Shown: positions 1 to 57,800, numbered from the stretch's first letter. The stretch is DNA of 64,000 nucleotides from Bispira polyomma (GCA_965649765.1 OZ287757.1:23436001-23500000); one strand, 5' to 3'. Program-made: numbers and translations. Notes: a model not told the origin generated them from the sequence alone.

Positions 1-756
1 GCCTCAAGAGAAAAAAATTGCACAGCGATGCCAGAGCAACAGATCCAGAGGTCGAGGCTGTGGCACAATCAGCGTCATCCGATGAGGACCTACAGAAGCA
101 GATACTGCAGCAGCTCAAAAAGGTCAACAAAAGACTGAACGTGGTTGAGGAAAAGGTTGCTGCTGGAACAGTGACAAAGGACAAAAGCAAGTTAAGTAGT
201 GTCAAGTGTTAGAGCAAAAAACGTACTGTAGATATGCCAGAAGACTTGTCTGAGTCATCCTAGGATAAGGAAATTGTACCAAAATAGTCGGCCTTAAGAA
301 GTGCTAATGATTTGCAAAAGCAGGTAGATGCGCATGTGCGTGAATTAGAAGGAGAATCCTGTAGTCAGAAAGGTAATGATAGTTGTAGTAAGGTTAAGTC
401 AAAAAGGGGTGGAAACATTGATGCAATAGTAAGACACAAGGTTTCCTAGCCACAAGAAACCATTCTGAGGGGCACTACTAGGCAAAGAATTTCATATGAT
501 CAGTTAAAAGAAAAAATGTTATTGTATATGTCCGACCTTATGGAGGACGCAACTGATTTCTCGTGGCACTCAGCCGAAGCGGCTCATGCCGCCCTTTCCT
601 GTGAGATGGAAAGGGGGGCCTTAAAGTGGAAAGATAGTTATAGAATAGACAGGATATGTAGGGCTCATGCATAAAACCATGTGGCAGCACCCAAAAACAC
701 ATGAGCAAAAATTTTTTATTCTAATTAAAACAGAAAACACTGGTATTGCAAATTGT
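1..756 (+). pseudogene. Ngaro-1 gag-like ORF remnant
   Basis: ORF 18-212 plus downstream frames resemble the gag of copy 2 (34449-34766: KSQRGG, VPWPQ, RVSYDQL). Confidence 0.75.
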
Positions 757-4850: not shown

Positions 4851-4923
4851 CCCCCTAGAATTGATTAAGCAGGCTTATAGCGAGCTATCCTCCTAGAATT
4901 GATTAAGTAGGCTTATAGCGAGC
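4848..4923. repeat. 38-bp tandem duplication at the insert/Ngaro-pol junction
   Basis: tatcc(c/t)cctagaattgattaag(c/t)aggcttatagcgagc occurs twice. Confidence 0.85.
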
Positions 4924-6643: not shown

Positions 6644-6650
6644 TTTTCAG

Positions 6651-7640
6651 ACGCACCCTCCCAGTTAAGAAAGATTGCCATACAAGCTTCACATAGAACT
6701 TATCAAGCATTTAGACCAGCCACTGAGAGAGCTTACACAAACATGTTCAGGATATTTTTGGCCTTTTTCAGTTTTGCTCAGGTCAGCCCACGACATATTT
6801 CACCTATAATTCTCTTGGCTTTTCTTGAAGTTTTAGTGGTTAATAATGATTCTACACTGTCCATTGCAAATTACCTTTTAGCAATAAAAGCTAAAATGAC
6901 TCTAAATGGGCTCGACATTTCTGCCTTTACGGATAATTGAATCAAATACTACCAAAGAGCTCATGTACTGAACAGCCCCTTCAGGGCAAAAAATAAAGCA
7001 ATCATACATATACCACTCTTGTAGCAAATATTTCAAATCTGTGATTCCATGTTCATGGGATTAGTATTTAAAGCAGTCTATCTAATAGCCTTTTTCTCGT
7101 TTTTAAGAATCTCAAACCTGGTTCCTCATGCTGCCGCTCAACTTTCACCTCTGGTTCAGTTGGTCGGGGGAGACGTGTTGTTTGCCCCCCCTGGCCTGCA
7201 CATAATAATCAAATGGTCAAAGATCTTGCAGTTGAAGAATGTAGTAAAGGTGCTTAAAATCCCTAGTCTCAATGGTTCCCCTTTGTGTCCAGTGATGGCC
7301 GCTAAGGTTCTGTTGGCTATTACTCCAGGGCATAAGAACTCCCCCTTATTTTAATTCAAAAAAGACCAGAAATGGTTTCCCATGATTGATCCTCAAATTA
7401 GAAAGAATCTTACCTTAATACTGACCCAGTTGGGTCTGCAACAGTCTGCTATATCATTCCACACCTTTCGCAGGTCGGGTGCCACTTTGGCATTCAATAA
7501 TAATGTACCAATTCAAGATATCCAAAGTCATGGCACTCAGACCTCCGACTGTGTGTGGAAGTATATAGTTTAGGACCACAATGCCTCAGAACAAGTGGCC
7601 CTGTCCTTTAAGTCACTTCTTTCAAAATCCCCTACTTGCT
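6651..7640 (+). pseudogene. Ngaro-1 tyrosine recombinase remnant
   Basis: Catalytic R-H-R-Y motifs: FFSFLRISNL, FHTFRRSGAT, HGTQTSDCVWKY. Confidence 0.9.
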
Positions 7641-7647
7641 AATTGGG

Positions 7648-9646
7648 TTTTGGGGCTTATTTACATATTTTTACACACATAATATATTATTAAATGTTAA
7701 AGATAAACCTTTTGGGCCACCTTACCACCCTTTTTCATGTTAAACTTTTATATATACATTGTAAATCTATTTTGGCAACTTTAAATTAAATATAAGGTTA
7801 CCTGCTACTTAAAATCAACCCTAACTTATAAGTTAGGGCTACCTCAAACTAAACTCACTAATCTCACATTAGGGCTACCCTTAAACTCAAATTTTTGTGA
7901 CCTTAAACCAAGTTTACTCAGACTAAGGTCACCTTAAACTCAAATTTATCTCTGGTGCTAAGGTGGCCCTAAAAATCAGTATGTAAATAAACTTAGAAAT
8001 AACATAGAAAGCATTAAACTAATATCCCCACGTCTGCCTTGTTACTTACCTGTGTTGTCCGTTCATTAAAGTCACTGGGTAAGGTACTGTGTGGGGTATA
8101 CCCAGGTCAGCTAGGATCAGTGCTAGCAGTATTTTCCTTAACTCATTTGTCAGGGGTCAAGATCTATGACCCCTTTTCTAATTCGCCAGTTTGTACCAAT
8201 TAACCTCAGTCTTTTCCGCTTTTTCTTAGACCCCTCACTTTTAACATTGAAGTCAAGCAGGCGACACCACCATCTTAATTATATTTTATTTTTGTTTCCC
8301 TCCCACTTCCCCTACTACAACCTCTGCATTTGTCAGCTATTCGTCCGTCCGTTGGAGCGCTGTGGCTGTCCCCTGGGGTTCCACGAAAACCCCCTTTACA
8401 CTATGGCGCAGGGGGTGGGGGTTGTCGGCTGTGGGCCCACGAGTTATGCATTACTGTTGGGGGCCTTCTGGGGCCTCAGGTGACCTGTCTCCCCCACCTA
8501 GCTGGATCAAACCAGGGTTTCCATGGAACCACACATATTTCAGGTAGCTGAGCTCTGTTGAGACTGAGTCCCTATGGTTGTTATACACTGTGTTTCACTT
8601 ATATGTTTCACTTATATGTGGTTTGAAAATAACATGATTGTGTATTACATTTGTAGAAAATTGAACACACCTGTACTTTTAGGGGTTTATATTAGTAGTA
8701 TATACATATATCTCTGAAATTAATGTTATAGACAGAAGGCACGCAGTTTACTGGTAGCACCTAGGGGTCGTGTTTCTCTTAGGTACCTGTTCAATGTATG
8801 TCAATTCCAGTCATAAATTTGGTAAATAGTACACAGGAAGAAAAAACCCATTTTATTGTCAGTATATTGTAACATGAAATGCATGCTAAACAAACCATAA
8901 GCACATATTAAACACTAAGTGTGTAGTTTCAGACACATGGTGATCATGGACCAGTTGTGACATCCCGGAAGTCTCTGCTCTTGTCTGTGTGAGAACTGTT
9001 GCCTAAAACACAAGATCAACTCGATTTCAATTTTAACTCAATGTCTGTATGCATGTTTTCCTTTGATCATGGTTATTGTATGTACTAAGGGTTTAAGGTT
9101 AATTTCTGTGCTACTCTATTTACTTTAATTTAAGAACAGCTTTAATGTTTTAGCTAGTCACCATGATCTTAACTTCGATTTTACCCCTTTTTGGGGTCTT
9201 ATGTACATATACACTTTTTACACACTTAATATATTATTAAATGTTAAGGATAAACTTTTTGGGCCACCTTACCACCCTTTTTTATGTTAAACCTTTATAT
9301 ATATACATTGTAAATCCATTTTGGCAACTTTAAATTAAATATAAGGTTACCTTCTACTTAAAATCAACACTAACTTAGGGCTACCTCAAACTAAACTTTT
9401 AAATTCACTTTCAGGTAACCCTAATCTCACATTAAGGCTACCCTTAAACTCAAATTTTCGTGAACCTAAACTGGGTTTACTCAGACTAAGGTCACCTTAT
9501 ACTCAAATTCATTTCTGGTGCTAGGGTGGCCCTAAAAATCAATATGTAAATAAACATAGAAAGCATTAAACTAATATCCCCACGTCTGCCTTCTTACTTA
9601 CCTGTGTTGTCCATTCATTAAAGTCACTGGGTAAGGCACTGTGTGG
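7648..9646 (+). repeat. Ngaro-1 3' split direct repeats (B1 7648-8094, A2/spacer, B2 9188-9646)
   Basis: Two ~450-bp highly similar direct copies, both ending ...GGGTAAGG(T/C)ACTGTGTGG. Confidence 0.9.
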
Positions 9647-9769: not shown

Positions 9770-12700
9770 ATAGAAAAATTCAGCAACATTCATGACAGCT
9801 TTTCAACGATATATCATTGAAGACCTCCAACCCCAGGATATAAGGTTTCTAACCTGTTTCATTTCAGTACACTGTCAGACCAGGAAGTTCTGAAACTCAT
9901 AAAATCTTCTACTGTTAAATCTTGTGAATTAGATCCTACCCCAACAGTTATGCTAAATCAATGTCTTGACATTCTATTCACACCCACAACAAACATTTTA
10001 AATCTTAACACCTATCGCCAGGATAGCAGTTATAAAATCAATAATACTATCAAAATTTAATCACCTGTTTACTTCAATTCCGAGTCCTGATCAAAAATCA
10101 CTTCTACGAGTAAACAGTATCTTATATAAATTTATATGGAGCAATAAACCAGACAAGAGAAGCAGAAATAAAGTGACTAATCACTATAAATCCAGAGGTC
10201 TTAATATGGTAGCTATAGATTGTTTCATCCAGAGCCCAAAAAAAAGTTTGGATAAAGAAGTTAACAAATGACTCAGACTCGCTATGGAAAATAATCAGTC
10301 AAAATTATACCCTCGACCCAAACAGACTAGTCACGGTAGGCCATCTGTGGCCAAAAGCTCTAGCGTCTCAAACAACAAACAAATTTTGGAAAGAGACACT
10401 ATTGTCTTGGTCAAATCTTTTACAACAAACTTGGTCTAAGCAACAAAAATAATAATAACCCCTCTGTGGTACAACAGTAGAATTTCAGATACCCCACTTT
10501 TTTCAAAACATGGTACCAGAAAGGAATACAAAATATAGTCGAGATACACAATAGTGAGTTAAACCTCATGTCAAAATTTGAAATAAGCAAACATTTTCAA
10601 ATACAAGTGAGCTTTCTTGACTATATGAGAATAAAAAAATGTCTAAATATATTTTTTAAAAAGAACACTTCCGAGATAGACTGTGAGAGACCGATACTAC
10701 CAGTAGTAATTGCACTACTGAATAAAGTTAAAAAAGGTATTTGACCCTTCTATGACAAACTAAAAAGCATAAATAATATTGACAGTGAATTAAAGCACAA
10801 ATGGGAGCTTCTGTTAGAAGTCTTCTTTAGTACCAACGAATGGCAAAATATTTATTCAATATGTTTCAAAAGTATTCTTGACAATGACTTATTTGGCTGC
10901 AATACCGTATTATTAATCAAATCCTGGGTACAAAAAAGCTTCTATATAAAATCGGAAAGGCGGACAATAATTTATGCAGGCTCTGCAACAGATATGAGGA
11001 ATCTATTAGTCATCTTTTTGTTGAATGTGACACAACTTTAAAATTTTTAAGGGAGGTGAAGATTACTTTTTTTCCAAAATGCAGATTTAGAAATTAATAT
11101 CAGTAAAAATGCTATCCTTTTAGGCTATACTTCCAACGAGAAGAATGATCACTTATTAAATATCATAAATATTATTGCAAAAAAAATATTCTTCTCCTGT
11201 GCTTTTAAAGGAAGTACCCCAGTTCTAAGAGATTATCTTCAATATCTGAAACAAATCTACTTTGAACAGGAATTACTAGCTAAAATAAACCTAAGGGTTT
11301 TGCAGTTCCACAGAACTTGGGGAAAATGTTCAAGGGCTTGATAAAAACCAGCTAAAAAACTACAGACCTGTGTCAAACCTCAGCTTCGTATCAGAAGTCA
11401 TCGACAAAGCTGTAGCTCAACAAATTTCTGACCACCTTAATAGACAACACATTGAAAATCGCCACCAGTCTGCTTACAGAAAATTCCACTTTACAGAAAG
11501 TGTCGTTTTTCAATCAGCAATGATATCAATCTTGCACTGGACCACAACGACACAGTGGCCCTCACCCTTCTGGATCTCTCAGCTGCATTCAACATTATTG
11601 ATCATGTCCTGTTCTAAAACACTCTCAAGCAGTGGTTTGGTATAAATAGAAGTTTTCTTAAATGGATCAGATCCTACCTTACTCTTAGGGCACAAAGAAT
11701 TAAATTAGATGGTCACCTATCATCTTCCATAAAGCTACCATATGGAGTACCCCAGGGATCCATCTTTAGCCGTCTAATTTTTACCCTTTATACACATCCT
11801 CTCAGCACTGTCATAAATAAACATAATATAAAACACCCCATGTATGCAGATGATCCTCAAGTCTATCTCTCTCTCAATCCACAAAATGCAAATACAAACA
11901 TAGACCCACTTGCAGACTGTCTGTCTGATGTTCAGGCGTGGACTACTCCGAACTAAAACTTAACCCGGACAAAACAGAATTCATCCACATTGGAAACAAG
12001 AAAAACAGTGAACTCCTAAAACCTGTGTTTCCCATCTCCCTGCTGGGAAAAGACATACCAACTTCCGAAAATGCCAATAATCTGGGTGTCACTTTTGATT
12101 CAGCTTTTTCGTTTGACACTCATATTGCCAACATCTGTCGCTCCCGCTATTACCATATACGCAACATCAAAAGAATCAGAAACCACCTGTCCATGGACAC
12201 AGCGATAACTGTGACAAATGCCCTTGTGAGTAGCCGCCTCGACTACTGCAACTCTCTTTTGTACGGAGCAAACATGTCACACATTAAAAAGCTCCAGTCC
12301 ATCCAAAACTGACTATGTAGGGTAATTTTTGCCTAGGTTGTCACACAGACGTCACTCCTTACCTCAAAAAATTGCACTGGCCTCCCATTCATTCTCGTTT
12401 TTTGTTCAAGATTCACCTTACTACTTTTAAGGCTGTAGTCACTCAACAGCCCCCCCCCCTACCTTGCCTCCCTTCTCTCCTTCAGTAACTGCAAGAGAGG
12501 CAACAGACTCTCTGTCTCTTCAGGAAGGCGGGATCCAGAACTCCACTGCAGCTCCACTGTTATAGAACAGTCTCCCAGTCGACCTCAGATCAGTTGACAC
12601 ACTTATCGGTTGTAGAAAAAAGCTAAAAATCTATCTTTTTAACCTTGCCTACCCATCTTAGCTTCCCTCGTGCACGCTCCCACTTCCTTCCTTACGACTT

Positions 12701-12803
12701 TGCAATGTCCATGGACTTAATGATTGGACCAATGATTCTGCTGTTGTGCTTTAGAAGATGCCTAGAATCAATAACAACGCATAAAAATTCATAATAATAA
12801 TAA
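9770..12803 (+). mobile_element. L2-clade LINE family X, 5'-truncated copy 1 (interrupted by a Tx1 fragment)
   Basis: Colinear with 31098-32890. Motifs [34 protein letters not shown]; (TAA)n tail. Confidence 0.9.
10004..11330 (+). mobile_element. Tx1/L1-clade LINE ORF2 C-terminal fragment
   Basis: LTPIARIAVIKSIILSKFNH, YKFIW, RGLNM, PLWYN, WLQYRII, and LCRLC...ESISHLFVEC (zf-RVT-like). No 3'UTR or poly-A. Confidence 0.8.
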
Positions 12804-13342
12804 AATAGTGTTGCACTTGTCTTAGATCTCTCAGACTGACAAAACAGGATTACACTAATGAGTTACATTATTTAATATTGATACTTTAGGTGGGGGACAG
12901 CAGCCCAACTATCCAAGGTATCGCACACAAACATTTTCTTATACGCAAGTAATTTGCTCGAAAATATTTACAAACAGTATCAATATCAAAATCGACACGA
13001 CCTATTTTGAATCAGTATTTTATGACACCAGCTCAATATGTACAAATTTGTTTGATTTTCACATAAGCTTTGTTTGTTTTTGTAATAAAAAAGTGGCTTA
13101 GTTTTTTAACATTTAACAATTCTTCTGGCCCAAAATTTTCTGGACTGATTAATTTATTGTGAGATTTAATCTGGTTTAGAATGCCCTTAATATAATACTA
13201 TATCACTGGTTTTAAAACAATTAACTTTAAAATTATAACATACTGAATAAAACATATAACATTTCATAAGGATTAGTTTACAGCAACAGGCACAGGTGCT
13301 TAGGATGCATATTCTCACAGAACACCACAATTCAGGTTTAAT

Positions 13343-25737: not shown

Positions 25738-28240
25738 ACACAACAGAAAATCTCTCTTGAAGGCCACAAGAAATATAAGTAAATGCGGTCCAAAAAGCCA
25801 AAAGTTAATTTTTCTATGGGATTTCTGCTAGTGTTGATTGCTTGTGTCAGAGATGTTCCATCTTTAAAATGCCCTTGGTTCTGGAAAAAAAAATACATTA
25901 ATATTTTAATTTTTCTGGTGTCTATATTTTAGTTTGGAAATTGTGTACAGGGTCCAGGCCCCAGGAGTTTCCAGTTTATTTTTCGATTGATAGTTTATGT
26001 GAATGTATTTAACTGGTTGATGGAATGTATGCATTTGTATATATATGTAAATGAACTTTGTATGAATCTGTATTTAAGTGATTGGTGGAATTTATGCATG
26101 TGTATATTTCTGTAAATAAATTATATATATATTCTAGCCTTCAATCCTCCCTTTCTCACTCTCTCCATTCCCTTATTCTTCATGACCCTTTACTCTATCT
26201 CTGCATCTTCCATAAGATTTCCTTTACTTTATTTTTCTTTTTATTCTATGTTTGTGGCTTTTGAATCACTATAGCATTCCTAGTTCCTGTGTTTGTAAAA
26301 CAATAACATTCAAAATTTCCCATTATTATTTTTGGATAATAACTCTGGCATGAAGGCATTGTCTCTTATTTTTGTACAGATGTACCAAGGTGGTCTTCCA
26401 AAAATAATTCAGACTGTATTGACCATTTTATGACTAAGTATGACAATGCAGTAACTACATGTGGATGTACCAAGTACTCTACAACATGATCACTGTGTAG
26501 CTCTCATCAGAACAACGAAAACCAAAAAAAAAAAAAAAAAAAGAAAAGGAAAGACAGTAAGTATAACATGAAAAAAATAACGAAAAGAGAGGGTAGCATG
26601 GAAATGGCAGGAAGGACTTACATACTGCATTGAAGAAACTACATTAATTAATTAACTTAATTTATGTATAAATTAAGATAATATTTGAAGCAATTGGCTC
26701 TTAAAATTACATGACAAGTAAATTATTCATACGGCACCAACCATAATTTAATTATTTCTATGAATTACTCATGCAGTTTGTTAATTTCAAATATTTCTGT
26801 TTATTTGGGTAATTGTTAAAAACCTAAATAGTTGCTTTCCTTCTGCACTGCTTTGGTAAGGAAGGGTTAAGGTGGAAAGGTAAGACAGTTGCTGAAATAT
26901 AGTAGTTTGCGATTTTGTGATAGTATAGTGATTCAGTGAGGATGGCAAAGGAAAGGGAGAAGGACAGTGCCTCCCCTAAAGTTTGGATTTATGAATTAAC
27001 AAAATAAAAACACCATTCTTTGGGCATATTAGTTTAATTCACCAAAGTTAAATCCACAGATGATGTATAAATTGTAATATCATTAACTAAAAACTAAGAC
27101 CACCTTAAATTAATGTTGAATTGAAGAGCATGACTTAAAGTCCATGCCTGAGTTTACGTGGTTTACTTAACTTAATTTAAGATTACATTACAGTTTAAGT
27201 TATGTCACTTTACTAATGTTATTACTTGATTTAAGGTTACCTTACAGGTTTAAGTTCCGTAAGGTTAATGTGGCCTTAAGTTTTGACTAGTAGTACACGT
27301 AAGTTATATATGGTGTATATCAATGACATTTAAGTTTATTGTGTCAACTAAAAACATCAACATAGTAAAAACAGAAGAACCCTCTAGCTAAAACTACACC
27401 TACACTCACATACAGACAACACAGTCCATGGAAAGTCTCTTACGTGCCACTGCCTGTTCCGATCTAGCTATGCCTTAAATGACTACCGTAGTAGCCCCTT
27501 ATTACATAAATCGGGCATTACTACATAACACTGTGTAAAGCCTGTGCCTATGCCTGAGGTCACACACATGTATACATTATATAACAGTACTTACACAACA
27601 ATTAGTCAACATCAATTCATAATAGAATACCAAGACACTGGTGAGGTGGGAGGGAACTTTTTTGTTAAATTGGCATATTGCCTTCTTGGTTTCTAAATTT
27701 ATAATGGAATTATGTAGAAAAAGCGGGAAAGACTTGGGGTCATGACCCTAATGTAGCCAATTAGAATTTGGACAAGATTAGTTTTAGCAATACTTTTGGT
27801 AGCACTGAAACTGCTGAGGCCCCGACCTCACCATACATAGTGCCTCCCCCAAAGTGTGAATTTATGAATAAACAAAATAAAAACACCATTCTTTGGGCAT
27901 ATTAGTTTAATTCACTAAAGTTAGATCTTCAGATTATGTACAAATTGTAATATCGTTAAGTAAAAGCTAAGACAACCTTAAATTAATGTTGAATTAAAGA
28001 GCATGACTTACAGTCCATGCCTGAGTTTACGAGGTTTACTTAACTTCATTTAAGATTACATTACAGTTTAAGTTATGTCACTTTACTAAAGTTATTACTT
28101 GATTTAAGGTTACCTTACAGGTTTAAGTTCTGTAAGGTTAAGATGGCCTTAAGTTTTGACTAGTAGTACATGTAAGTTATATATGGTGTATATCAATGAC
28201 ATATAAGTTTATTGTGTAAACTAAAAACACCAAACCCCAA

Positions 28241-29195
28241 CTAGGAGGTAGTAAAGGAAGGGTGGTGTAATGAGTTTTGAAAAGCTAACGCCACCTGGTC
28301 AGAGGAGTCATGATGCTGGATAATGTAGCGCCAGACATCTGATGACCAAGTACCATGACTTTGAATATTTTGAATAGGAACATTATTAATAAGGGCCCAG
28401 GTTGCTCCAGAACGTCTAAAAGAGTGAAAAGTGATTTTAAATCTTGAAGGCAAAGATCTTTTAAAATTATGGTCAAATTAAGTCTGACATTGGAATCAGT
28501 CATAGGAAGCCACGAGGCCAGGGTTTTACATTGAAACAGTGGTGAATTTCTCTGATGGCAATAACACTGGCAATGGCAGCCACTCGACACAGTGGGGAGG
28601 GCCCAAGCGAGGGGATCTAGATAAGTCTGACAGTATCCCTGCGCTGTAACGTCTTACTCCATTTAATTGGTACATGAATGACAGGAGGTGCAAATAAAAT
28701 GTCGCCTCTAGCCAGGTGTTGTAAGGCTGAGTAAGAGGCAATGGAGTGGGGAACTAAATTTGATATTCTCAAAAACGGGAAGTATGCTAAGAGGTAAATG
28801 GCTTTGTAGACCTGACCCATGTACATAAAGTCACATTTCCTGATAATTTGAAGAAGCAATGGAATGTCAATTATAGATTTCAGTTGTACTTTGAATTGTT
28901 TGATGCAAGGCAATTGCTTTTTGAAAATATTTTATTCTAGGTTCCATAAAAGCTGAGGTGTCATACAAGCAAAGCTTTGCCTTGACAGCAGCCAGATAAT
29001 TTCCTATGCCTGAATGAGAGGTGTTGTTTTCAACAAACACCTCAAGGAAAGCTAATAGAACTTTAGGTGTGATTGGTTGGATTGAAATGTTTGCAAACAC
29101 AATAATCTAGGAAGATTTTTGGGTGGAAGGCCTAAAAGCCGTATGAGCCCTGTCAGCTGCTCTGCCAGCAGCCTTTGCCAGCCAGGAAGTTGTAC
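28241..29195 (-). pseudogene. Ngaro-2 tyrosine recombinase remnant
   Basis: ORF pieces 28867-29100, 28617-28913 and 28241-28453 with R-H-R-Y motifs. Confidence 0.9.
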
Positions 29196-29208
29196 CTATA
29201 AATTAGAA

Positions 29209-32200
29209 TCAGATACCCCAATCAAGTTGGGTGGCTTCCACCCCAACAGATAACCATGTTGGTTGTGGTATAAATTTTTGTAATTTACTTGTAGGTTCAG
29301 TGGTTATCACCCATCTTGACAGCAAGTCTGCCACTTCATTATTTTTACCTAGGACATGTATAACTCGCAGGTCAGTGTCTGCCCTGGCAGCTTCCATCTG
29401 GATATTTTGAGCCATGGCTGCAAGTGTAGGATTCCTAGTTTTACCATTGCTAAGTACCGAGACTACCGCATGATAGCCACATAATACCACCATTTTACTT
29501 CCTCTCCAATGGCAGCCCCATAAGCGAATAGCAACCAGAATGTTGATCATCTCCGGGTGAACAATGGAGAAATTTTTAAAGCCTAGGGGAAGTGGTAAAG
29601 TGTACACCTGGCTGCCCCAACGCCCACCCAAACCTTGTGTCTAATTCTATACCAGTTTTCGTGATTGTATGATAGAAGAAAGCAACCCCATTGAATTGTG
29701 AAATAAATTTACTGAACCATGCCTGATCTTGCTTAAATTCAGCCGTTAATGGGATGGATTTGTCGTCATAAGCAGAGCGAACTACATCTAGCATTCTATT
29801 TAAAAAGAAGCGTGAGATCTTTACACACTTCGAGACATCTAATAGACTTTCTGGTAACGACTGTAGATCTCTTTTTGAGCAGTGTATTTTGTGAAGCAAC
29901 TTCAGACAGACATTTTTTAATGTCACTCAGTTTTTCAGGTGGAATTGACACAGTAAAATTTTCTGTGTTTATTAGTACTCCCAAGCATGTAACGCTAGCA
30001 GCTGGACTAAAATGTTTTTTCTGGCTAATAGCAAAACCTAGGTCCATTAATAGATCATGGAGGGTTTTAAATGATTTTTCTGTTGTACTAGGGGTGCCAT
30101 AACCTATGACGTCATCGATATAGTTGGTAACTAGAGAACCCTTTTGACATGATAAACCCGACGGCGTCACTTAGGTGTTGGAATATCACACTTCTGTGCC
30201 AGAACTCAAAGGGCAGGCACGTATCCACATAATAGTCGTCTAGTTATCGGTTATCATTCATTCCTAGTTTCCTCCTTTTACAGACACCCATCCCTTCTTT
30301 AACTAGTTTTACTCAAGAGTTTTCCGAATTCCTAGAGACTCTTAACCTTCTCCCATTTGAAGCTATCATCCTTGGTGATTTCAACATCAAGCTTGACATA
30401 GAAAATACTACGACAAAAGATTTCAACACCCTCCTCGACACTTTTGGGTTCTCACAGTTTATCTCTACTTCAACCCACATCCACAATCACATACTCGATC
30501 TGGTAATCGCAAGACCAAATTCAAATCTCATCAGAGAATCATGGGTAACTGATGGGATTTTAGATCACCTAGCAACCTTCACCTATTTAAATTTACCAAT
30601 ACCTGCCTCACAAAAACCGTGTGTCATAAAATACAGAAACATCAGAAAAATCAATATAAACAAATTTAGAGACAATATCCTGGAAACTAATCTCATCAAA
30701 CATCCATGCAAAAATGCTGAAAGCCTTAGCTTACAATACAATCACTGCCTTTCTACTGTCCTTGATAAACATGCGCCATGGGTATCAAAAACCCTTCCCC
30801 CAACTAACACCCATGAATGGACCAATGCCGCCATTACAGAGGCCAAAAGACGCAAACACCAACTTGAGCATCAATGGCGACGCACAAAATCCTCCGTTAC
30901 CGTATCGCCACAAATAATTACAACAGGCTAATAACTGATGCCAAAAAGCAACACTACGACTCTATCATCACCGAAAATCAGGATAATCCCAAAAGGTTAT
31001 GGGCCTCCAAAAACAAAATTCTACATCGAACATCAGATAAAGTTCTCCCCATAAACCACTGCCTTACTTTTTTAGCAGAAAAATTTGGAAAATTTTTTAT
31101 AGAAAAAATCAGCAACATTCGTGACGCCTTCCCAACGATACATCACTTCAATCCTCCAGCCCCAGGATATAAGGTTTGTAACCTGTTTCATTTTAGTACA
31201 CTGTCAGAGCTTGAAGTTCTGAAACTCATCAAATCCTCTACTATTAAATCTTGTGACTTAGATCCCATCCCAGCAGTTATACTGAGTCAATGTCTTGACA
31301 TTCTTGTCACACCCATAACAAATATATTAAATTTTTCTCTTCGGGATGGTGTTTTTCCCACCTGTTTCAAGACGGCAAATGTAACTCCCTTGATTAAAAA
31401 ACAAGGGCTTGATAAAAACCAGCTCAAAAACTATAGACCGGTGTCAAACCTCAGCTTCGTCTCAAAAGTCATCGAGAAAGCTGTAGCTAAACAAATTTCT
31501 GACCACCTTAATAGACGAAACATTGAAAATCGCCACCAGTCTGCTTATAGAAAATTTCACTCTACAGAAAGTGCCCTTTTTTTCATCAGCAATGATATCA
31601 ATCTTGCACTGGACCGCAATGACACAGTGTCCCTCACCCTTCTGGATCTCTCAGCTACATTCGACACTATTGATCATGTCCTGCTCTGCGACACTCTCAA
31701 GCAGTGGTTCGGTATAAATGGCAGTGTCCTTAAATGGATCAGATCCTACCTTACTCTTAGGGCACAAAGAATTAAACTAGATGATCATCTTCGATAAAAC
31801 TTCCATATGGAGTACCCCAGCAATACGTCCTTGGTCCTCTACTTTTCACTCTTTATACACATCCTCTCAGCACTGTCATCAATAAACACAATATAAAACA
31901 CCACATGTATGCAGACGACACTCAAGTCTATCTCTCCCTCAATCCACAAAACGCAGATACTAACATAGACCTACTTGCAGACTGTCTGTCTGATGTCCAG
32001 GCGTGGATGAACTACTCCAAACTAAAGCTTAACCCGGACAAAACAGAATTCATCCTCATAGGAAACAAGAAAAACAGTGAACTCCTAAAATCTTTGTTTC
32101 CCATCTCCCTGCTGGGAAAAGACATACTACCTTCCGAAAATGCTAAAAACCTGGGTGTCACTTTTGATTCAGCTTTTTCGTTCGATACTCATATTGCCAA

Positions 32201-33240
32201 CATCTGTCACTCCTGCTATTACCACATACGCGACATCAAAAGAATCAGAAACCACTTGTTCATGGACACAGCGATAACTGTGGCAAATGCCCTTGTGAGT
32301 AGCCGCCTCAACTACTGCAATTGTCTCTTGTACGAAGCAAACAAGTCAAACATTAAAAAGCTCCAGTCCATCCAAAACTACCTATGTAGGATCATTTTTC
32401 ACCTGGGTTGTCGCACAGACATCACTCCTTACCTCAAAAAATTACACTGGGTGCCCATTAAATCTCGAATTTTGTTTAAGATTCACGTTACCACTTTTAA
32501 GGCTGTAGTCACTCAACAGCCACCCTAACTTGCCTCCCTTCTTTCCTTCAGTAACCGCAAGAGAGGCAACAGACTCTCTGTCACTTCGGTCAGACCAATC
32601 AGAAAGGCGGGTTTCAGAGCGTTCTCCACTGCAGCTCCACAGTTATGGAACAGTCTCCCAGTTGACCTCAGATCAGTTGACACACTTATCAGTTTTAGGA
32701 AAAAGCTTAAAACATATCTTTTTAATCTTGCCTACCCACCTTAGCTTTCCTTGTGCACGCTTCCACTTCCTTCCTTACGACTTTGCAATTTCCATGGACT
32801 TAATGATTGCACTAATGATTCTGCTGTTGCGCTTTAGAAGATGCCTAGCATCAATAAAGCGCGTTAAAAATCTACAATAATAATAATAATAGTTTCAAGC
32901 TTAATAGATCATAGTTTTTAGGACCCATTTTGACATGCCGGAACGCCCGGCTGATGTTAATTTTGTACAGTAGTAAGCCTTTGCCCAAGTGCTTGACTTT
33001 ATTGGTAAAGTCGTCTATAGTAGGTAAGGTAAGCCTGAAAGGAGTACCTATGTAACTGTTTTTGAGAGCCCCTGCATTAACCGAGTGACCCAAGGGAAAA
33101 CTAAGGTCAATTATGACCCTTCTGTAGGCACCACACCGTTTTCCTTGGTAATGAATGGTGAAATATGTAAATCTTTTATTGGTGGTTTTTCAAAGGGACC
33201 TAATATAGCTTTGAACTGCTTTTCTTCTTGTATCTATCTT
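29209..33240 (-). pseudogene. Ngaro-2 pol (RT/RNase H) remnant, split by an L2 insertion
   Basis: VIIDLSFP, LPTIDD and KINISRAFRH at 33093-32891; resumes in frame DDYYVDTCLPF at 30240; then NYIDDVIG and ADLLSRW. Confidence 0.88.
30246..32889 (+). mobile_element. L2-clade LINE family X copy 2 (partial APE + RT), inserted antisense in Ngaro-2 RT
   Basis: APE motifs ILGDFN and THIHNHILDL; RT ORFs 30874-31797 and 31905-32528 (YADD); (TAA)n tail; flanking tagtt repeat at 30241-30245 and 32890-32894. Confidence 0.93.
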
Positions 33241-35694
33241 ATCTACTGACGTACGCATGAGATCCCTATTTTTAGGCTTCACCTGCAACTGCAACTCATA
33301 TTTGTAATCAGTGTTGATTTTACTTAAGCTATCACCTTTAAAGTCAAATTCACCTCGTCCAATGAGTTAAGCTCTATTCGTAGCATTGTACACAACCTGA
33401 TTACTTGAATTATTGCTTAGTTTTGCATTGCTTTTGTTTTGACCCTTATGGGGCTCCACAGTGGGATGATTTGATTCACCCGCTTGGTAACTAAGGTGTC
33501 TTCACTTTGTAATTGCTCTACGGGTGCCAACCGATTGTACAGTATAGGCGCCCAGCCATTTAGAGTGTCACTTTTAATTGGTTTACCTCGCCCTGAGTGT
33601 TTTTTGACATCACTTTCCCGGTGGGGGGGGGGGGGGGGGGGGGTAAAAGCCTTATTGTCGCTTTTGTCCTTTTTGGAGACAATGGGGCCACCACGCACCT
33701 TTGTTGGTGGGTGACATGGGCTTTTTCTGAAATTTTTTGTTACCATACATTTGTTACTGTTTTCACACTTTTTCTTCTTTGCACAAACATTATTTGACAT
33801 TTTTTGAAAGAACACGCTGGTTTTTGAGACTGGTTTTTTATTTTTGTTCCGAATAATTATATCCTTTTATTCCCTTCCCGCAACACTTGTGCATAAGAAA
33901 TTTGATTTACTTTATTCCACTCGTGTCTCCAGGTCCAGCTCGCCCTTTCAGACATATCACTATTTACATATAGTTTAGTGTGGAATTTCTGGACTTCCAA
34001 CAGTGGCTTAAGGCCAAGATACTTTACTTCTTTAAACTTTCTATGCACTGCCCCATGGCAGTGCTCTACTCTTTCTTTTAACTTAAATTTTGATTTAAAC
34101 CTTATTTACATTCTTTTGGCGGGTGTGTGTTGTTTGCCATAAAAACAGCACATGTTGCACACACGTGGGATTATAATTGGCCCCCTGACCCATGGTCGGA
34201 CTTGTGAGAACACGCCCCCCCCCCCCCCCTTCAATAAAATCTGCAAGGAATTGCTGCAGTTTTGTCTTTACCATATTTTTTGGCCAAACTCCCCCCAGTT
34301 TGATTAAAGACCTTGTGGGCATGGGCCCTTCTGATTCTCTTAATCTGGATTGTGTCACCCCAAGTGACCTTTCTGTCCTCCATCCTACAGAAAAAGACAG
34401 TATGAGCTCCCTTGGTGGCAAACCAAGAAAAATCAGGGCTGTCCTCTATTATATCATTGAGGTAGTGTGGTTTTTGGTAGCCATGTCGGATTCTGCGGGT
34501 ATTATAGCGCTAAATCCAGCTATCCACTGGGCTATTGACAGCTGGTCATAACTGACCCTCCCTTTGTTATTCCCCCCTAAGACATAACTCTGAGGCCATG
34601 GAACTTGTCGCTTAACACACACAGTCTCTGAACCACCTCTTTGTGACTTAAACCTACCCGACTCGTTCAACAAGACCAGCTCCTTCAGTCTGTCATCTAC
34701 CTGGTACTGGGCTGTCTGTGAATGTCTCAGCACTGCCAGAGAAGGGATCACCAAGTCGTCATCCACAGTCGACCTTGAAAAGCCGTGGAAGGGGTTTTAG
34801 TTGAATCATATTGTGGGGCCGAAGCCCCTACTTTGTCACCATAGTTCACTTTTGTTCTATTTTGGACATACGCCCTCCCAATTCCTTCAATTCCTCTAGG
34901 ATTCTTTCATTCACCGTATTCACTGACGAGTGTTCACTTGCCATATAGGAATTATCCAACTCATCCCCAGAATTTTGAATTCGTCTGGTTGTAAATTTGG
35001 TGTATAAGATTAAAATTGTATAATAAATTGTAAATAAAATGGTAAAATGTTATAATAAAAGGATAAAAGCACTTTCTCTAACAGAGCTCAACGAACAGTA
35101 CAGGCATGACTCAAAACATGAGTATTTTAACAATCTTTCACACAGGTACCAGCACCACTAACAGCAAGATGCTCCATGTTTTCACCAGAATATCCACTAA
35201 CTGTGCCTGACTCTAACATATGAAGACAGTACAACACTTCGGAATTCCAATATAAAACTTTTTTGTTGAAATTGCGTCTTGCCTCCTTGGTTTTTAAATT
35301 AATCATGGGATTATATAGAAAAAGCGGGAAAGACTTGGGGGTCATGACCCAAATGTAGCCAATTAGAATTTGGACAAGAATAGTTTTAGCAATACTTTTG
35401 GTAGCACTGACCCTGCTGAGGTCCCGACCTCACCATACAAAGGGATCCGTTGTCAAAATTAATGGCCCATGTTTTGGCTCATATGTCGAAGTTTGGTCTG
35501 GTGAAGGGTGTTGGTTTTGATATGAGCCAGGTGCCACAGTACCAGCATGTTCGAACGTCTGTAAGAACAGTAGTCTTGGAAGTAGATGAGGATGTGGAGG
35601 TGCCAAGTTTGAATTCTATCCATTTCGAAAATATGACAATGCCGATTCTATTAACCATTCCATTATGTGTTATAATTTTACAACTTGTTAATCT

Positions 35695-46772: not shown

Positions 46773-48656
46773 ATGTATCAAGTAGTAAGGTTAACTTAAC
46801 TTTAGTGATTCACTTTACTGTGTCTAATACTGTCTCAAATATCAGTAATGTACCAGTAAAACAAAAAAATAATATTTTATTAAGAACCCATACTACTGTG
46901 GTATTTGTTCCACTGTGTATTGTAGGTGTTTTGTTTGGCTGCTGTAGTGTTCTACATGTTTTACTTGTTGGACCACAAGATCTACAAGAATGACATTTAT
47001 GGTAAGGTATATAGTTATCTTGCATTATCCAAATCTAACATCACACAAATATATATACCACTGTAAAAATCCTGGATTAACCCTTTACTGCAACATTTAA
47101 TGGACTCTTCAATTAGATCAACATCTTCCATACATTAAATTTGTGTTGTCAAATAGTTGTCATTCTGTTTGTCAATCGTACCATTACATAATTGTATTTG
47201 CGTCCAATAAATTGTTACATAAGTGTGTTTTAATACTACAGATTAACCCCACAAGAGTATTTTGTGCTTCAAAGAAGTAACACCAATATGAATAAATATG
47301 TAATATAACCATATGTAACACAGATCATCTTTACTAAGTATTCCTTGAACAATTTGAAACTGCTCAATATTGAGAACAAATGCATCAACTATTGGATGCC
47401 AAAGTGATTTAGAAAACCTATGTTATTTTAGCTTCAGTAATTAGATATAAGATTCATACATTTCTGTATTTAAAGCAACAGAGATGCAGGGCAAAAGCAA
47501 AGATGCCATCAGCACACAAATACTGAAGCCTTGCCTTCCCAAGAGACATATTTATTACCTCAAAGTTGCAAAGACTGGCAGTTCCACCTTTTCAAACATA
47601 TTGAATAGAATAATACTAGCAAATAATCTCACTGATTTCAATCCACATAAACTGAAGCCGCACCCACACACCCTTGTTCAAAAGAATTGTGACAAATGTC
47701 CTTCTGAGCCTCGATTTGATGTTCAAGTTAACCATGCTGTGTATGATCCCAGTCTCACAGCCAAGTGGATGAAAACTGACACTCAGCACATAGCAAGCTT
47801 ACGGCATCCCTTCAGCAGGTCTAGATCTGCTTTTTATTTTTTCTATGGTCGGAAACATCCAAGTTTAACAGAAGGAGCTTTAGATAAAATATTCAAGGTT
47901 AAAATTCTAAATCCTCCTAAAATAAATCAGATGTTTATTTTTTTTAGATTTGACACCATAAAAGCATCTGGAAACAACACATACTTTTTAAAGTGTCTGC
48001 AAGATATCGAAGACAGATTTGCCCATATCATTATAAGTGAAATGTATGATGAAAGTTTGATACTTTTAAAACGTAAAATGTGCTGGAATACAAAGGATAT
48101 TATTTACATATCCCACAAAAATGCCTCACTAAAATATCAACAATATGATAATATGGAAAATTTAAATTATGGAAACTTATCAGAAATACACAAGAGCAAA
48201 TCTCCATTAGATTATGCATTATATCAACACTTTTTAGATATCCATAGAAATAGTGTCAGATCATTAGGTGCAGCATTTTACAAGGAAGTAAAAGAATTTC
48301 AAAGTGCAAAGGATGCAGCAAATAGGTTTTGTCAGACTGTATATGTTAAGTTAAGAAAAGGAAACCATAACAATCATATTTTGTCCCAAAAGCTGATGAT
48401 TCCCAAAGGAGAAACAATTGATTCTTTTGAGGTAACTGCCCATGACTGTGTTGCCATGGCTTTGGCTGTTCATGATGCCCAACTCATCAAGATGGCTTTG
48501 AATTATCCAATGGCATGTTCATACGATTTTAGTGACTCAAAGGTGCATGTCCGGGAAACGTTTTGTTCTCAGCATAACAAAGCAGGCATTTTTGTATATA
48601 ATAATACGGTATTTATACCAGACAGTGTCTTACACAACATCAAATCGGATCTATGA
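46773..48656 (+). CDS. Galactose-3-O-sulfotransferase (GAL3ST/cerebroside sulfotransferase) family, type II membrane protein, ~422 aa
   Basis: The main exon 47476-48656 has a 5'-PSB-like motif YLKVAKTGSSTF, a 3'-PB-like motif LRHPFSRSRSAF, and YDESLILLKRKMCW and LDYALYQHF. Simplest upstream model: exons 46773-46784 (MYQV) and 46926-47001 (VFCLAAVVFYMFYLL signal anchor), phase-compatible. The 5' exons are less certain than the catalytic exon. Confidence 0.85.
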
Positions 48657-51600: not shown

Positions 51601-52740
51601 CCCCCTCATATCCAGCAACACGCTGTCACTCGGCCAGCTCAAACTCATCTTCAACTGCCTCACAATCATGGAGCTCACCTAAATCCACTCGTGCAACCTT
51701 TACCAGGCCATGTCCCTCGGGACTACTCTCAGGATAGGATCATTCTAAATGTGGATGTATTCAGATCTCTACCGAATGTCCAATCGGCTGTGTCGTGCCA
51801 GCTGGCGGAATATGAGAATCTAGCACACAGAACACTGCGTACCAAGTCAGGGTGCTTCAATAACACTGACGTAACAACAATTGATGCTCGGTTTAGGTGG
51901 CCAAATGAGGGCTGGGTCGGGGGTTCGACAAAGAAGCGACCTACATATGACGGCTTAACGCTTCCTCAGTGGGCCACGGGACAAATTTCAAATGCTTTGC
52001 AGGTATCCGACAACACTGTGATGCGTCCGCTCACCGTGGTTTAGTCATGAACCCTTCTTCTGAAAACTTTACTGAAATGATTCACACTGACCATGCTAGC
52101 AATCCTGTCATCAGGCAAGCTAGGGACTATAATGACAAAATAAGGAAGTTGGGTTTAAAGCCCTTACATCCACTGAGTTCTACTTTGATTGGCCTGACAG
52201 ACTACCTACAAAAATTGACTCTGTTTCTAAAATTTTGGAAGTGGCTGACATTATTAGAGACACAGGTGTTCCTAATTATCGTCAGGCCAATACTAATAAG
52301 TTTTGGGTTGGTGATTGAAGCTTGGGAAAAATTACTTAAGGGTTATTCTGAGTTATTGATTCAATACCTTACATTTGGCTTCCCCTTGTCACTAAATGAA
52401 CCAAACAAGATCAGGAATGCTAGAGTCAAAAATCACTTTTCAGCTTTACAACATCCTAAGGCAGCCAGTGAATATCTACAAAAAGAAATGTCCCTTGGGG
52501 TAATGTTGGGCCCTAGCAAAGATATCAACAATATTCATTACAATTGCTCTCCACTGTTAACTAGGCCCAAGGATATAACGAAACGTTGGGTAATTTTAAA
52601 TCTTTCTCACCCATATGGAGCTTCACTCAATGATAATGTCAACAAAGGGAAATTCAACAACGTAGCCTTTACTTTAAAATTTCCGACAATTGATAATATT
52701 ACACAAGCAGTAAGAGAAATTGAGAACGCAGTCTTAATTT

Positions 52741-54814
52741 AATCTAATCTAATCTAACTTTTATAGCGCCTAATCTCTCCTATTTAGGGGATTCTAAGGC
52801 GCAGGACAGTATCCTTATTCAATTTGCATTTCCGTTTGACAAGCATGGGTCAGCACCATGGAGACGCCGGGTGAATTTAGGGCTATGGTGGGAAAGCCTT
52901 GTTGAAAAGGTAGGTTTTAAGTTTTTTTCTAAAGGATGTAAGTGAGGTTGCACAAGGAATTCCGGTAGGTATTTCATTCTAAAGTGTTAGATTTGAATTT
53001 GGATATTTAACGTCCACTCTAGTACCTTTTAGTAGGTTATATTGGGACGGGTAATTGGAAACGCTGGAGGAAACACTGCATACAGTTGGTCAAGGTTCTG
53101 CAGAGAAACCAGCGGCCCACAGTAAGGAACTACCACCTTTCCCACATAGGCATCGATGGGATTCGAACTCACACCGCCCAGAGGTGAGAGACCAGTGATT
53201 GCTAACCACTAGGCCATTGCGGCCCCTCTAAAGTGTTGAAGCATCATGGGCAAAGCTATTGTTAAACTGACGTTTAGATTTGTGTACTGCTGAGATAAAT
53301 CTTGGAACGGTCAGATAACTTTTTTCCGGTCTGCTCCTTCTGGTATTGTGGCTGCAGGTGTAAAGTGTGAGGTATGGATTCCAGTATGCTGGAAGGCCAT
53401 TATTTAAGAATTTGTAGACTAAGGTAGCTGTTTTGAACATACATCTAAACTGAATGGGTAACCAGTGGAGATTTCTTAAAACAGGAGTAACACGGGAGTA
53501 CTTGGAATGGTTGGCCACCACTTTGGCTGGCGAGTTTTGGATGCATTGCAACTTACAGATGTCAGCCTTGAATAAACTTCAAAAGAGAATTACAGTAGTC
53601 AAGACGACTTGTAACCAGGGCATTTGCAACTATAGTAGCAGTACCAGCTGACAAATAGCGCCTAACCCTTCTTAGATCCCTCATTTGGATGAAGCAAGAC
53701 TTGCAAACTTCATGAACTTGTTTGGAGAAGGAAAACGTTGAATCAAACCACACCCCCAAGTTCTTGACAGCACTTGCATGGTACACTATGTTTCCTAAAA
53801 TATTGGCTGGGAAAAATCCTTCAATCTTGATCCGAATAGTATAAACTCAGTCTTATCCAGGTTTAATTTAAGCTTGTTGGCAAACATCCATTTTTGAACA
53901 TCACTGAGACAACTTTTTAGACTGTCGAGAACAGTTGTGGCATTTTTATATGAGAGATGAGTATACAGCTGTGTGTCATCAGCATAAAAGTGGTACTTGA
54001 TATTGCTATGTTTGCTGATGATATAGCTGAGCGGAGTAGTGTACAAAGAAAACAAGATTGGGCCCAGAACTGACTCTTGTGGAACACCAAACTCAAGCTT
54101 AAACAACTCTGACAGAGTGGAGCCTATTTTGACAGACTAAAATCGATTTGAGAGATATGAAGGAAACCATTCGAGAACTGTACCATAAAAGCCGAACCAG
54201 GACGATAAGTATTTAAGCAACGTAGCATGATCAATAGTATCAAAAGTTGCCGACAGGTCTAGGAGGACTAGTGCTGTAGGTTCACCTTTTGAAAGAGATA
54301 TATGTACTTCATTTTGATGAATAGAAGAGCTGTTTCAGTGAAATGGCCCTGTTTATAAGGAGACTGCAGGAGATTACCCAAACCATTTTTGTTGATATGT
54401 TGTGTTATTTGTTTTGCAACAATTCTTTCCAATAGCTTGGAGATGAAACTTAGGGCTGATACTGGCCTATAATTCTTAAGGTCCTTTTTTGGTAATGATG
54501 GTTTCTTTATAAGTGGAGTTACTACAGCTTGTTTAAATTTATCAGGTACAATACCCTCTGCAAGAGAGTGGTTGACAAGTCTGGCGATAGAGGGTAGAAG
54601 TATATCGACACCTTCATTCACCAGGAAAGTTGGCCAGGGGTCTAACATACAGGTTTTAGTGGGGGATTCATTTATAGTTTTTAGAACATCATCTTGTGAA
54701 ACTTGAGTAAAGCCAGAGAAATTCGGTGGAGGTCTGGTAGGGGGAATGCAACTTGTATTTGAGCCAGAGAACATGTTTCTGATATTTTTAATTTTTCCAC
54801 TGAAGAAAACCCCA
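52741..54814 (-). mobile_element. L2-clade LINE family Y, 5'-truncated, antisense in Ngaro-3 RT
   Basis: NYRPVS, GVPQESVLGP, YADD, LVTSRLDYCNS, LHWLPI; tail GCGCTATAAAAG(TTAGA)n at 52741-52770. Confidence 0.92.
52989..53226 (-). mobile_element. tRNA-derived SINE family A, copy 4 (nested in the L2 inside Ngaro-3)
   Basis: 11-bp TSD tctaaagtgtt at 52978-52988 and 53227-53237; very similar to copy 3. Confidence 0.93.
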
Positions 54815-57800
54815 AATTCAAAATTGACATTTCGCGGGTGTTCCGGAACTTAAGGTCGACCCAGTTGACGCTGTCAAACTGGGGATATTCTGGAATGATG
54901 CATACTACATTGATCCGGCAATTGCGTTTGAGTGGGTTCACGTACGCCATTACGTCACATATGCTGAAACAAGGTTTCCGGACGTTCGGGTACATGGACG
55001 ACTACATATGTGTGGCCTCAAGAAGTGTTGCGCTGGAAGGATTCAAAATTTTACATCGGCTCATGACAGAACTTGGCCTCCCTATGAATCTGGACAAACT
55101 AACTCCTCCAACAACCAAATTGACATGTCTGGGCATTGATTTTGATGTAGAGCAGCTGACTATTTAAATTCAACTAGATAAGTTAATGGAAGTTTATAAC
55201 GCATGTGTGGAGACACAGGCTAAGCAGTATATATTAAAAAACCAGTTCCAGTCGTTACTAGGCAAACTGCTATATATCCATAAATTCGTCCTCCCTGCCA
55301 GAGTTTTCATTAACAGGCTGTTGGCAGAATTTCGGGCCAATCATGCAGCTAAACGATTTAAAGTAACTGTCAACATGAAAAATGACTTACAATGGTTCGT
55401 ACTTTTCCTACAGAAATTCAATGGCATTACATACATCTCGTATGACGTTTTGGTGAAGAATTACACCTGGAGGCCTGTCTCACAGGTTTTGGAGGCATTT
55501 GGAATAATGAAGTATATGCCACACCGTTCTATGACATTTTGAATGGTCAACTTACCATAGTTCACCTGGAAATGCTCAACATAATTATCGCGCTAAAAGT
55601 CTGGGCGGAACAGTTGAGACACAAAAAACTGAGCATCAATTGCGACAATATGGCTGTGGTTTTCATAGTTGACTCCTAAAAAACTAGAGACAAATTTATG
55701 CGTTATGTCTTACAAATATTTGGCTTATTACAGCGACATATGACATAACACTAAGCATAAAGCACATTCCTGGTAAAAATTTAGAATTCTAGAATTTTAG
55801 AATTTATTCAAAGGCCTTTGTAGTGCAACTTTAGAACCTATTATTAATAATTATTTTTGGAAATTAGTTCCTCTCACATATTTTAATCTTAATTTGTCTA
55901 TTTAATTGCAGGTGCTTCTGCATTATCATCACAGCTCAAGGATTCTGCCTGGGTTAGGATTAATTCAGCCTTAAGACCCAAGACTAACTCTGCTTACAAT
56001 GGACAGTTTAGAACTTTTGTAGCTTTTCTAAAATTTTCTGGTATATCCACTATTACTGTACATGCTATTATTGCATTTTTGGAGTACTTGGTGCAGAATC
56101 ACTTATCACCAGGTGCCATAAAAAAACTACATGGCTGCTATTAGATTCAATGCCAAAAGATACCAATGAGATTTATCACCATTTACACACAATGCAGTGG
56201 CTTTATTTTAAAGGGGTTTGTCGCACAACTCAAATTTAAGGCCGAAACCCAAGGGCCTTTTTCCAGTGAATCAAATTTTACAAATCTCTGCTATCTGTGA
56301 CATTCTGGATGACCCTGTACAATATAGGGCCATTTTTCTGGTAGCCTTTTTTGGCTTTTTAAGGCCATCAAACATAGCACCACATTTTAGGGCTTCTTAT
56401 GACCCTTCCAGACATTTCTAAAGGCAAGATGTGGTTTTTGGCCATCCTGGAGCACATATAATTTCAAAATGGGCTAAGAACCTTCAGAATAGAACTGACA
56501 CACATATAAAATTCAAATCCCACTTTTTCATAACAGAAACATTTATCCAGTGACAGCAATTAAGAAACTGCTATCTAGCAGATCTCTACCTCCCACAGCC
56601 CCACTATTATTAGGAGGTCTGGGGCAACTTTCGCTATCAACCATAATGTATCCTTACAGAGCATCATGGCACATGGCCTTTGGAGGTCTTCTTCAGTCTG
56701 GTCCTACCTTCAAGAAACCTCTCAGGCTGCCTCCATACTTCCTCTCACTTTTGCTTCTGCCATCTATTCCTCCCTTTAGTTTGGCTGGGGCTTTAAAATT
56801 TTTTAAATTTTAAGCATCTTTATTAACTAACTGTTAAATGTATATTTTGAGAAACTAATATGTAAATAATAAAACCTCAAACGGAATTTTTCATTACCTG
56901 TGTTACATAGCATATCATCTTACCAATAATAATATCAAATAATATCTATTTGACCTTGGCCAATATCACCTTTGAACTTGACACTACCTTGGGGACTGGT
57001 GAAGCCACTTGCAATCAAATAATCAAGGTACTGATGACTTTCACAATGAGAAGCCACATTCATCTGTTAGTAATAATAGTTTATTTTTCGTACTAATAGT
57101 ACATAAAAAAGAGATAGATACAGATTAATAAAACAAACGTACAAACATAATTACATATCATTATATAGATAAATAAAAAATATATATATATACACTATTT
57201 CATTATAACTTAAGTAATCAAGCCAGTTTTGTAGTAGTTTATACCACAATGAGGATTCACATTCAATCATCTAGTAATCCAGTTAATCAAACAATTAAGT
57301 AATCAAGGTACAGATTAGTTTCAGTATGAGAAACTACATTCAGTTATTAATTGATCAATCTAGCTTTGTGATGTATACCCCAATGAAAAGCCGATTATCT
57401 AATAACACAGTTAACATCAAAGATTTATGTATTTGTATATGAAAATAGACAGATGAATTACTCTATTATACCGACATTGTGTTTTACATATACAGATATA
57501 CAACGTTTCACATGTTTTATTAAATGTAACACTCAGCCTTAAGGCTTATATGTCGGTTTAAAAAGAATATTCCAATTCAATGTGTGTATAAAAATAGGTG
57601 AAAAACTGTACTATTTTGCAGAAATGGTGAAATTCGCAATCTATATCTTCAATTCTTGTAAATATATATATATGTTATTCGTAATGTAACCATACATGTA
57701 AATTTAGATTTGTATGAACAGAAATGGTAAAGATAAAAATCATTTAAAATATTTCATAGTTCAATGAAAGTAGTGATTTTGTCAATGTTTTAACCAATCT

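Follow-up and report, generated by a model that had tools for sequence, protein, structure and literature searches.

Predicted splicing of the gag N-terminus to the tyrosine recombinase in Ngaro-type retrotransposons of Bispira polyomma

A stretch of 64,000 nucleotides (nt) of the Bispira polyomma genome (G000, 1.04 Gb; GCA_965649765.1, OZ287757.1:23436001-23500000), hereafter the window, contains on its minus strand a decayed retrotransposon of the Ngaro type, window copy 2, in which the frame for the tyrosine recombinase (YR) has no start codon of its own. The question raised by this locus is how such a frame is translated. The answer has so far been a guess, and the guess located in print is frameshifting. 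YR open reading frames (ORFs) are described as in frame or overlapping (PMC3783388, PMC9210276), and Poulter and Butler 2015, as quoted in PMC13003380, regard the YR of Ngaro elements as probably made by programmed frameshift. The preliminary description of the window had proposed a splice instead. From the sequence comparisons given below, it is very probable that a donor in gag is spliced to an acceptor placed after pol, which would fuse the N-terminal third of Gag to the whole YR.

In window copy 2, both sites were found exactly as first described. The donor TCG G/GTAGGT (the slash marks the predicted cut) has its last exon base at 34658 and its GT at 34657-34656, within the gag reading LLNES-G-RFKSQRGG. 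The pol stop TGA (29211-29209) is followed by 11 nt (ttctaatttat), by an AG at 29197-29196 and by an exon starting at 29195, in phase 1 and in the YR frame. The recurrence of the acceptor in window copies 1 and 3 was also borne out, with the AG ending at 6650 and 55911, respectively; the donor of copy 3 has been lost, the surrounding codons being absent relative to relatives. Window copy 2 is itself a fossil, with frameshifts, an interrupted pol, a stop 26 codons into YR, and an exon 1 remnant in which the start codon and the zinc knuckle are deleted and the frame is broken. For this reason, the test of the splice had to rely on relatives. These were 91 stretches around gag or YR matches in the same genome, which correspond to about 38 families at 82% nucleotide identity and form two clades on a YR tree built without named Ngaro reference elements and with L062 and L069 left out. 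Among the intact families, the nearest one (L012, L015) shares about 78% identity with window copy 2.

Concerning the donor, the glycine preceding a conserved KS motif of gag was read in one natural copy of each of 31 families, drawn from those with a readable glycine (the initial 32 became 31 upon removal of L081, a duplicate of window copy 1). Its codon is GGT followed by A in 31/31 families, so it is fixed as the donor would need it, as had been supposed, and not freely GGN. As controls, the neighbouring motif glycines just downstream are GGT in 18/52 cases and GGTA in 4/52, and other gag glycines are GGTA in 67/562. Outside the 31 families, the single-copy families L065 and L093 have AGT at this codon, with the GT kept; decayed copies have GCT, GAT, GGC or a deletion (the latter in window copy 3), and the site was unreadable in L032, L033, L034/L042, L066 and L097. 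The glycine lies 3–8 codons ahead of the KS motif, and the next residue is R, T, N or K with a first base that is always A. Since the residue varies while the base stays, the constraint acts on nucleotides. Of the donor motif that had been expected to be conserved, G/GTA was kept, but G/GTRRG as such was not. In 26 of the 31 families no GT of the gag frame has a better match to U1 than the donor, which in L012 and L015 is the top U1 match among the 240–246 GT between the 5′ repeat and the acceptor. A motif search matched 108 of 120 Gag homologs taken from other assemblies in a protein database, and in 106 of these 108 the residue after the nearest glycine is K, M, T, N, I or R; with the exception of R, each of these calls for a codon beginning with A.

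Concerning the acceptor, in 73/75 loci YR begins in phase 1 at the first AG past the pol stop, in agreement with the conservation anticipated for this site; in the two exceptions the frame is shifted downstream. Among 36 representatives, T occurs at −6 and at −5 in 34 each and a purine at +1 in all 36, neither feature having been a selection criterion, and the AG follows the pol stop by 6–21 nt. Between families, the differences at third codon positions around the acceptor amount to 0.6. In an alignment of 26 YRs, the protein homology starts at the acceptor codon, and the lack of a YR start codon that had been reported for window copy 2 was found to be general, with an upstream in-frame Met in only 2/35 rows and no conserved ATG.

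These data bear on the possibility that YR is translated alone, from an internal Met or a non-AUG start, either via a subgenomic RNA or by reinitiation. A Met is found 31 codons past the acceptor in most families of the window-copy clade (21/25 rows), and some RefSeq models begin within YR (P0812, P0689). However, this Met is not conserved in relatives: roughly half of the 26 aligned sequences have K or H at the position, and in the second clade the first Met comes at +9, +25, +79 or +85. Moreover, the 29 codons ahead of the +31 Met are conserved as protein, with differences of 0.42, 0.27 and 0.60 by codon position, and the Pfam N-terminal integrase domain begins ahead of that Met. Translation of YR alone appears highly improbable.

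The other way of reaching YR without a splice leads from pol: ribosomes would pass into YR by programmed frameshifting or by reading through the stop, and the product would be Gag-Pol-YR. The pol stop was located in 32 of the 36 representatives, and the position of YR relative to it is in part what recoding would call for: in 21/32, YR occupies the −1 frame and there is a short open overlap, and in 9/32, window copy 2 among them, it is in frame behind a single stop; besides, recoding-like signals are present at the gag/pol border of these elements. Against this, a pol/YR frameshift overlap shared by the families was looked for and not found, the −1, 0 and +1 frames being represented by 21, 9 and 2 of the 32 located cases; the occurrence of all three frames argues against a single frameshift or readthrough rule. 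Of the 21 representatives with the −1 frame, only 2 have a slippery heptamer, and in three loci of other hosts (L104, L106, L107) the YR frame opens 268–334 nt past the pol stop. Furthermore, recoding accounts neither for the acceptor profile nor for the fixed GGTA in gag, and it is considered highly improbable as the route to YR.

The donor and the acceptor match the phase and the consensus of a GT-AG intron and are conserved beyond coding need. It could be asked whether the two sites, though real, have separate functions, with the donor in gag acting in U1 control of termination or in the formation of a short Gag RNA, and the acceptor being paired with another donor. A precedent for part of this is a plant Copia element in which, according to the available text of PMC5580714, splicing together with premature termination gives a Gag-only RNA, and weaker donor-like sites were seen in the 5′ leader of 3/10 elements. 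No leader donor is common to the elements, though, and a non-coding leader would leave YR without a start codon, while the phases of the gag donor and the post-pol acceptor match and RefSeq models carry Gag-like residues ahead of YR (see below). Separate use of the sites would seem about as improbable as recoding from pol.

The class of the elements was established from their layout. The ORFs follow on one strand in the order gag-like, reverse transcriptase (RT)/RNase H, YR, and split direct repeats arranged as A1-[ORFs]-B1A2B2 were found in window copy 2, L012, L015, L039, L082, L083, L089 and L095, with a spacer of a few hundred bases between the matched A2 part and B2. The YR catalytic residues R165, H284 and R287 are invariant and Y318 nearly so in 26 sequences; the Pfam Phage_integrase matches on YR fall below the curated cut-off. 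Past RNase H, no methyltransferase domain was found by Pfam, whose matches on the L011 and L039 pol were confined to RT and RNase H families, and the short distance from the pol end to the acceptor leaves no room for one. The same layout, A1-[gag, RT/RNase H, YR]-B1A2B2, is given for the Ngaro superfamily (order DIRS) in the available part of PMC8547959, and the absence of a methyltransferase domain in that of PMC4157794. Window copy 2 and its relatives are Ngaro-type by layout. A DIRS1-like membership (inverted terminal repeats and an internal complementary region) was rejected because the repeats here are direct, and a PAT-like one (methyltransferase plus split direct repeats) because that domain was neither found nor has room.

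The group is very abundant in the genome, each protein search giving thousands of first-look candidates, and in some families the paired repeats show 100% identity, which points to recent movement. The pol region ahead of RT contains three tandem units of about 150 nt (oriented 4456-4905 in L012; 4337-4787 in L015).

The predicted splice sites were also sought in other hosts. A metagenome scan gave 25 loci with 26–43% identity, of which 11 stayed outside the acceptor count because their match did not include the YR N-terminus or because they were near-copies of L110. In 14/14 of the others, several of them mutually related, a phase-1 YAG lies behind a pyrimidine-rich run at the homologous place; in L104, L106 and L107 it is this acceptor that stands 268–334 nt past the pol stop. 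Among seven other-host gag frames, those of L104, L114, L115, L120 and L121 show a clear phase-1 donor-like site, and that of L103 a weak one.

A search with a broader YR alignment, plus cluster look-ups, gave 18 named RefSeq models. In ten of them, forming six clusters from Branchiostoma, Mytilus and Crassostrea/Magallana, a Gag-like N-terminus of 120–245 extra residues is joined to a YR of 327–334 residues, and in five of the six clusters this added stretch gives a match to Gag from L117, L120 or L121 (E 3e-7 to 1e-4). For four clusters there is a paired sequence that has the same YR, the divergence setting in at the Gly; three of the four partners are read-throughs with ends such as FRLYSAG, VFFYIG or SSFTG. 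One RefSeq locus carries both fused and unfused isoforms. For one fused model, the nearest clusters in the ESM Atlas have 452 and 569 residues, to be taken as a lead only. In the Gags of this sister branch (L117, L120, L121; P0410, P0480, P0544, P0703, P0813), a shared helical domain of about 60 residues, with no Pfam match, replaces the zinc knuckle.

Several observations weigh against the splice. The P value for the donor glycine (2e-10) overstates independence, because the families share ancestry, and in the second clade of the genome several GT sites outscore the donor for U1. Among the other-host loci, L117 carries the acceptor but lacks a GT at the position that corresponds to the L120 and L121 site. 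Regarding the RefSeq models, eight of the 18 are not Gag-fused, the sixth fused cluster (P0460) has a weak Gag match (E 0.1) with the zinc-knuckle pattern only, and those that are fused are computed annotations and stand on the YR tree on a well-supported branch separate from the families of the genome. No Gag-YR fused protein was found among the closest 120, 120 and 150 matches of the window-copy clade, which look like prokaryote-style ORF calls. A look-up of sequencing runs listed none recorded as RNA that holds the nearest intact family. The donor-acceptor joint was absent from three runs of unclassified kind mapped to L015, where they covered the entire stretch and displayed several deletion-like joints elsewhere; these runs look like DNA and are uninformative on expression. 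Other searches gave no sign of retroposed spliced copies, with 0 genome matches to two junction motifs (one for the nearest family, the other for about ten other families), and no open frame of more than 378 codons among 117 YR matches. Viral contigs contained no relative. With these points counted, the splice from gag to YR remains strongly favoured, and the site pair is a conserved feature of a known class of elements and probably a new route of expression.

If so, one transcript would have two fates. The unspliced RNA would serve as genome and as message for Gag and Pol, the latter being made by a −1 frameshift in the window-copy clade and by UAG readthrough in the second clade. In L012, L039, L043, L045, L067, L072, L074 and L076, the sequence A-AAA-AAC lies just ahead of the gag stop, an inverted repeat (GCAC...GTGC) comes after it, and where checked pol stands in the −1 frame relative to gag; by comparison with retroviral gag/pol borders, this is likely a −1 frameshift signal. 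In the L082–L100 clade, gag and pol are in the same frame, with TAG and then G between them in 16/16 borders printed; this border is in phase 0 and has no pyrimidine run. Retroviral examples are again the guide in this case, and the pattern suggests stop-codon readthrough, so that the two clades would differ in their route to pol.

In the nearest family, the spliced RNA would encode Gag(1-134)-YR, a protein of about 466 residues; for the elements whose YR frame is intact, the predicted length is 446–656 residues. The first exon had been put at about 95 amino acids, which proved too short: it has 134 full codons in the nearest intact family and 116–331 in ten elements. At its beginning, this exon has a Cys/His zinc-knuckle pattern. 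In a structural model of Gag with a mean predicted local distance difference test (pLDDT) of 80 and a predicted template modelling score (pTM) of 0.48, the Cys/His knuckle is followed by helix 45-79, helices 108-133, a helical bundle and C-terminal fingers, and the donor falls directly after helix 115-133, ahead of the next domain. Foldseek found no fold match for this model at E ≤ 0.001 (best VIA Z 4.7), which speaks neither for nor against a capsid-like fold; a YR profile run against solved structures found no match at E ≤ 0.01. The Gag part kept by the splice (zinc knuckle, long helix and two short helices) could bring YR to the Gag particle or to the complementary DNA (cDNA), a delivery role to which about an even chance is given. 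As the front domain differs in the sister branch, the conserved principle may be the splice rather than a single binding mode.

The features of window copy 2, together with the acceptors of the other two copies, are collected in Table 1. The predicted intron is longer in window copy 2 than in relatives because of an insertion in pol, where the match to L015 breaks off at 32880 and picks up again at 30245. We take this insertion to be LINE-like (long interspersed nuclear element) by its endonuclease and RT motifs; a second copy with 88% identity lies in the window at 11331-12809. The pol of window copy 3 is also interrupted, by an opposite-strand LINE-like element at 52739-54850 that carries a short repeat seen elsewhere in the window. 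Copy 1 has a gag remnant of divergent type (window 42-725), which 4.3 kb separate from the pol and YR sequences (4896-9646), so the two parts may belong to different elements. Apart from these copies, the window has at 47451-48656 an open frame of 401 codons, presumably sulfotransferase-like by its motifs.

Table 1. Coordinates in the window of the parts of window copy 2 and of the acceptors of window copies 1 and 3
Feature	Position	Strand	Evidence or remark
Decayed Ngaro-type YR retrotransposon (window copy 2)	26964..35442	-	A1-gag-pol-YR-B1-A2-spacer-B2; self-BLAST and BLAST against intact relative L015
Split direct repeat A1	35256..35442	-	90% identity to 27655-27840
Remnant of predicted exon 1 (5′ gag)	34658..35001	-	tblastn against intact Gag aa 22-135; comparison with L012 and L029
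Predicted phase-1 splice donor G/GTAGGT	34652..34658	-	Sequence; best U1 match of 25 GT in gag frame
Predicted intron (remaining gag and entire pol)	29196..34657	-	3.0-3.5 kb in intact relatives
Insertion in pol, presumably LINE-like	30246..32879	+	Edges approximate; ORFs 30236-32528 on +
3′ pol (RT end, RNase H), TGA stop 29211-29209	29209..30243	-	tblastn; Pfam RVT_1 and RT_RNaseH on intact relative
Predicted splice acceptor ttctaatttatag/G, phase 1	29195..29208	-	Acceptor profile of 36 representatives
YR frame (predicted exon 2), broken	28247..29195	-	tblastn; Pfam Phage_int_SAM and Phage_integrase on intact relatives
Split direct repeat B1	27839..28233	-	93% identity to 26966-27360
Split direct repeat A2	27655..27840	-	Pairs with A1
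Split direct repeat B2	26966..27360	-	Pairs with B1
Acceptor of window copy 1 (ttttcag/A)	6644..6651	+	7 nt past pol stop
Acceptor of window copy 3 (ttgcag/G)	55906..55912	+	6 nt past pol stop

In the accessible parts of PMC3783388 and PMC13003380, YR is presented in accounts of Ngaro elements as an ORF that is separate, in frame or frameshifted, with no mention of a splice to gag, and nothing on such a splice is contained in those of PMC7192593, PMC6681497, PMC3266345, PMC9341512, PMC4495291, PMC12477816 and bioRxiv 10.64898/2026.05.21.726589. No description of it was found in the searchable literature, an earlier mention in the main reviews or in Repbase notes being possible. The nearest parallels come from other systems, each as given in the available text of the source. 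In murine leukemia virus (MLV), the SD′ donor in gag is spliced downstream to give P50, in which the Gag N-terminus is joined to integrase sequence and which is packaged; P50, however, has only the last 116 integrase residues and is an accessory protein (PMC10496198), whereas in the Ngaro-type element the entire integrating enzyme, a tyrosine recombinase, would need the splice. In foamy viruses, a spliced subgenomic RNA encodes the essential enzyme Pol, so that its packaging calls for an explanation; this Pol lacks a Gag part and is taken up by way of the RNA (PMC7828637); the Ngaro-type element would keep a Gag part and leave RT on the unspliced RNA. MLV P50, together with the packaging problem that foamy Pol presents, is the analogy behind the delivery role proposed for the Gag part. 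In the Ty1/Copia element EVD, conserved splicing also sets protein ratios, but there the spliced RNA yields Gag alone (PMC5580714), while that of the Ngaro-type element would make the integrating enzyme.

A broader reading, for and against which the chances seem equal, is that animal Ngaro-type elements, from the clades of this genome to those of molluscs and amphioxus, make YR only as spliced Gag-YR. Each transcript would then be decoded by three routes, Gag coming from plain translation, Pol from frameshift or readthrough, and the integrating enzyme, whose Gag part would deliver it, from splicing. Many RefSeq genes named as xerD homologs would in that case be spliced transcripts of such elements, and a class of odd gene models would be explained. 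If the splice is true, it would settle how YR is expressed in a large group of animal elements. The active enzyme would be a YR with a Gag-derived front, of about 450–650 residues in all, and not a protein of 330 residues, which bears on the biochemistry of these recombinases, and splicing would be a control point for both the host and the element.

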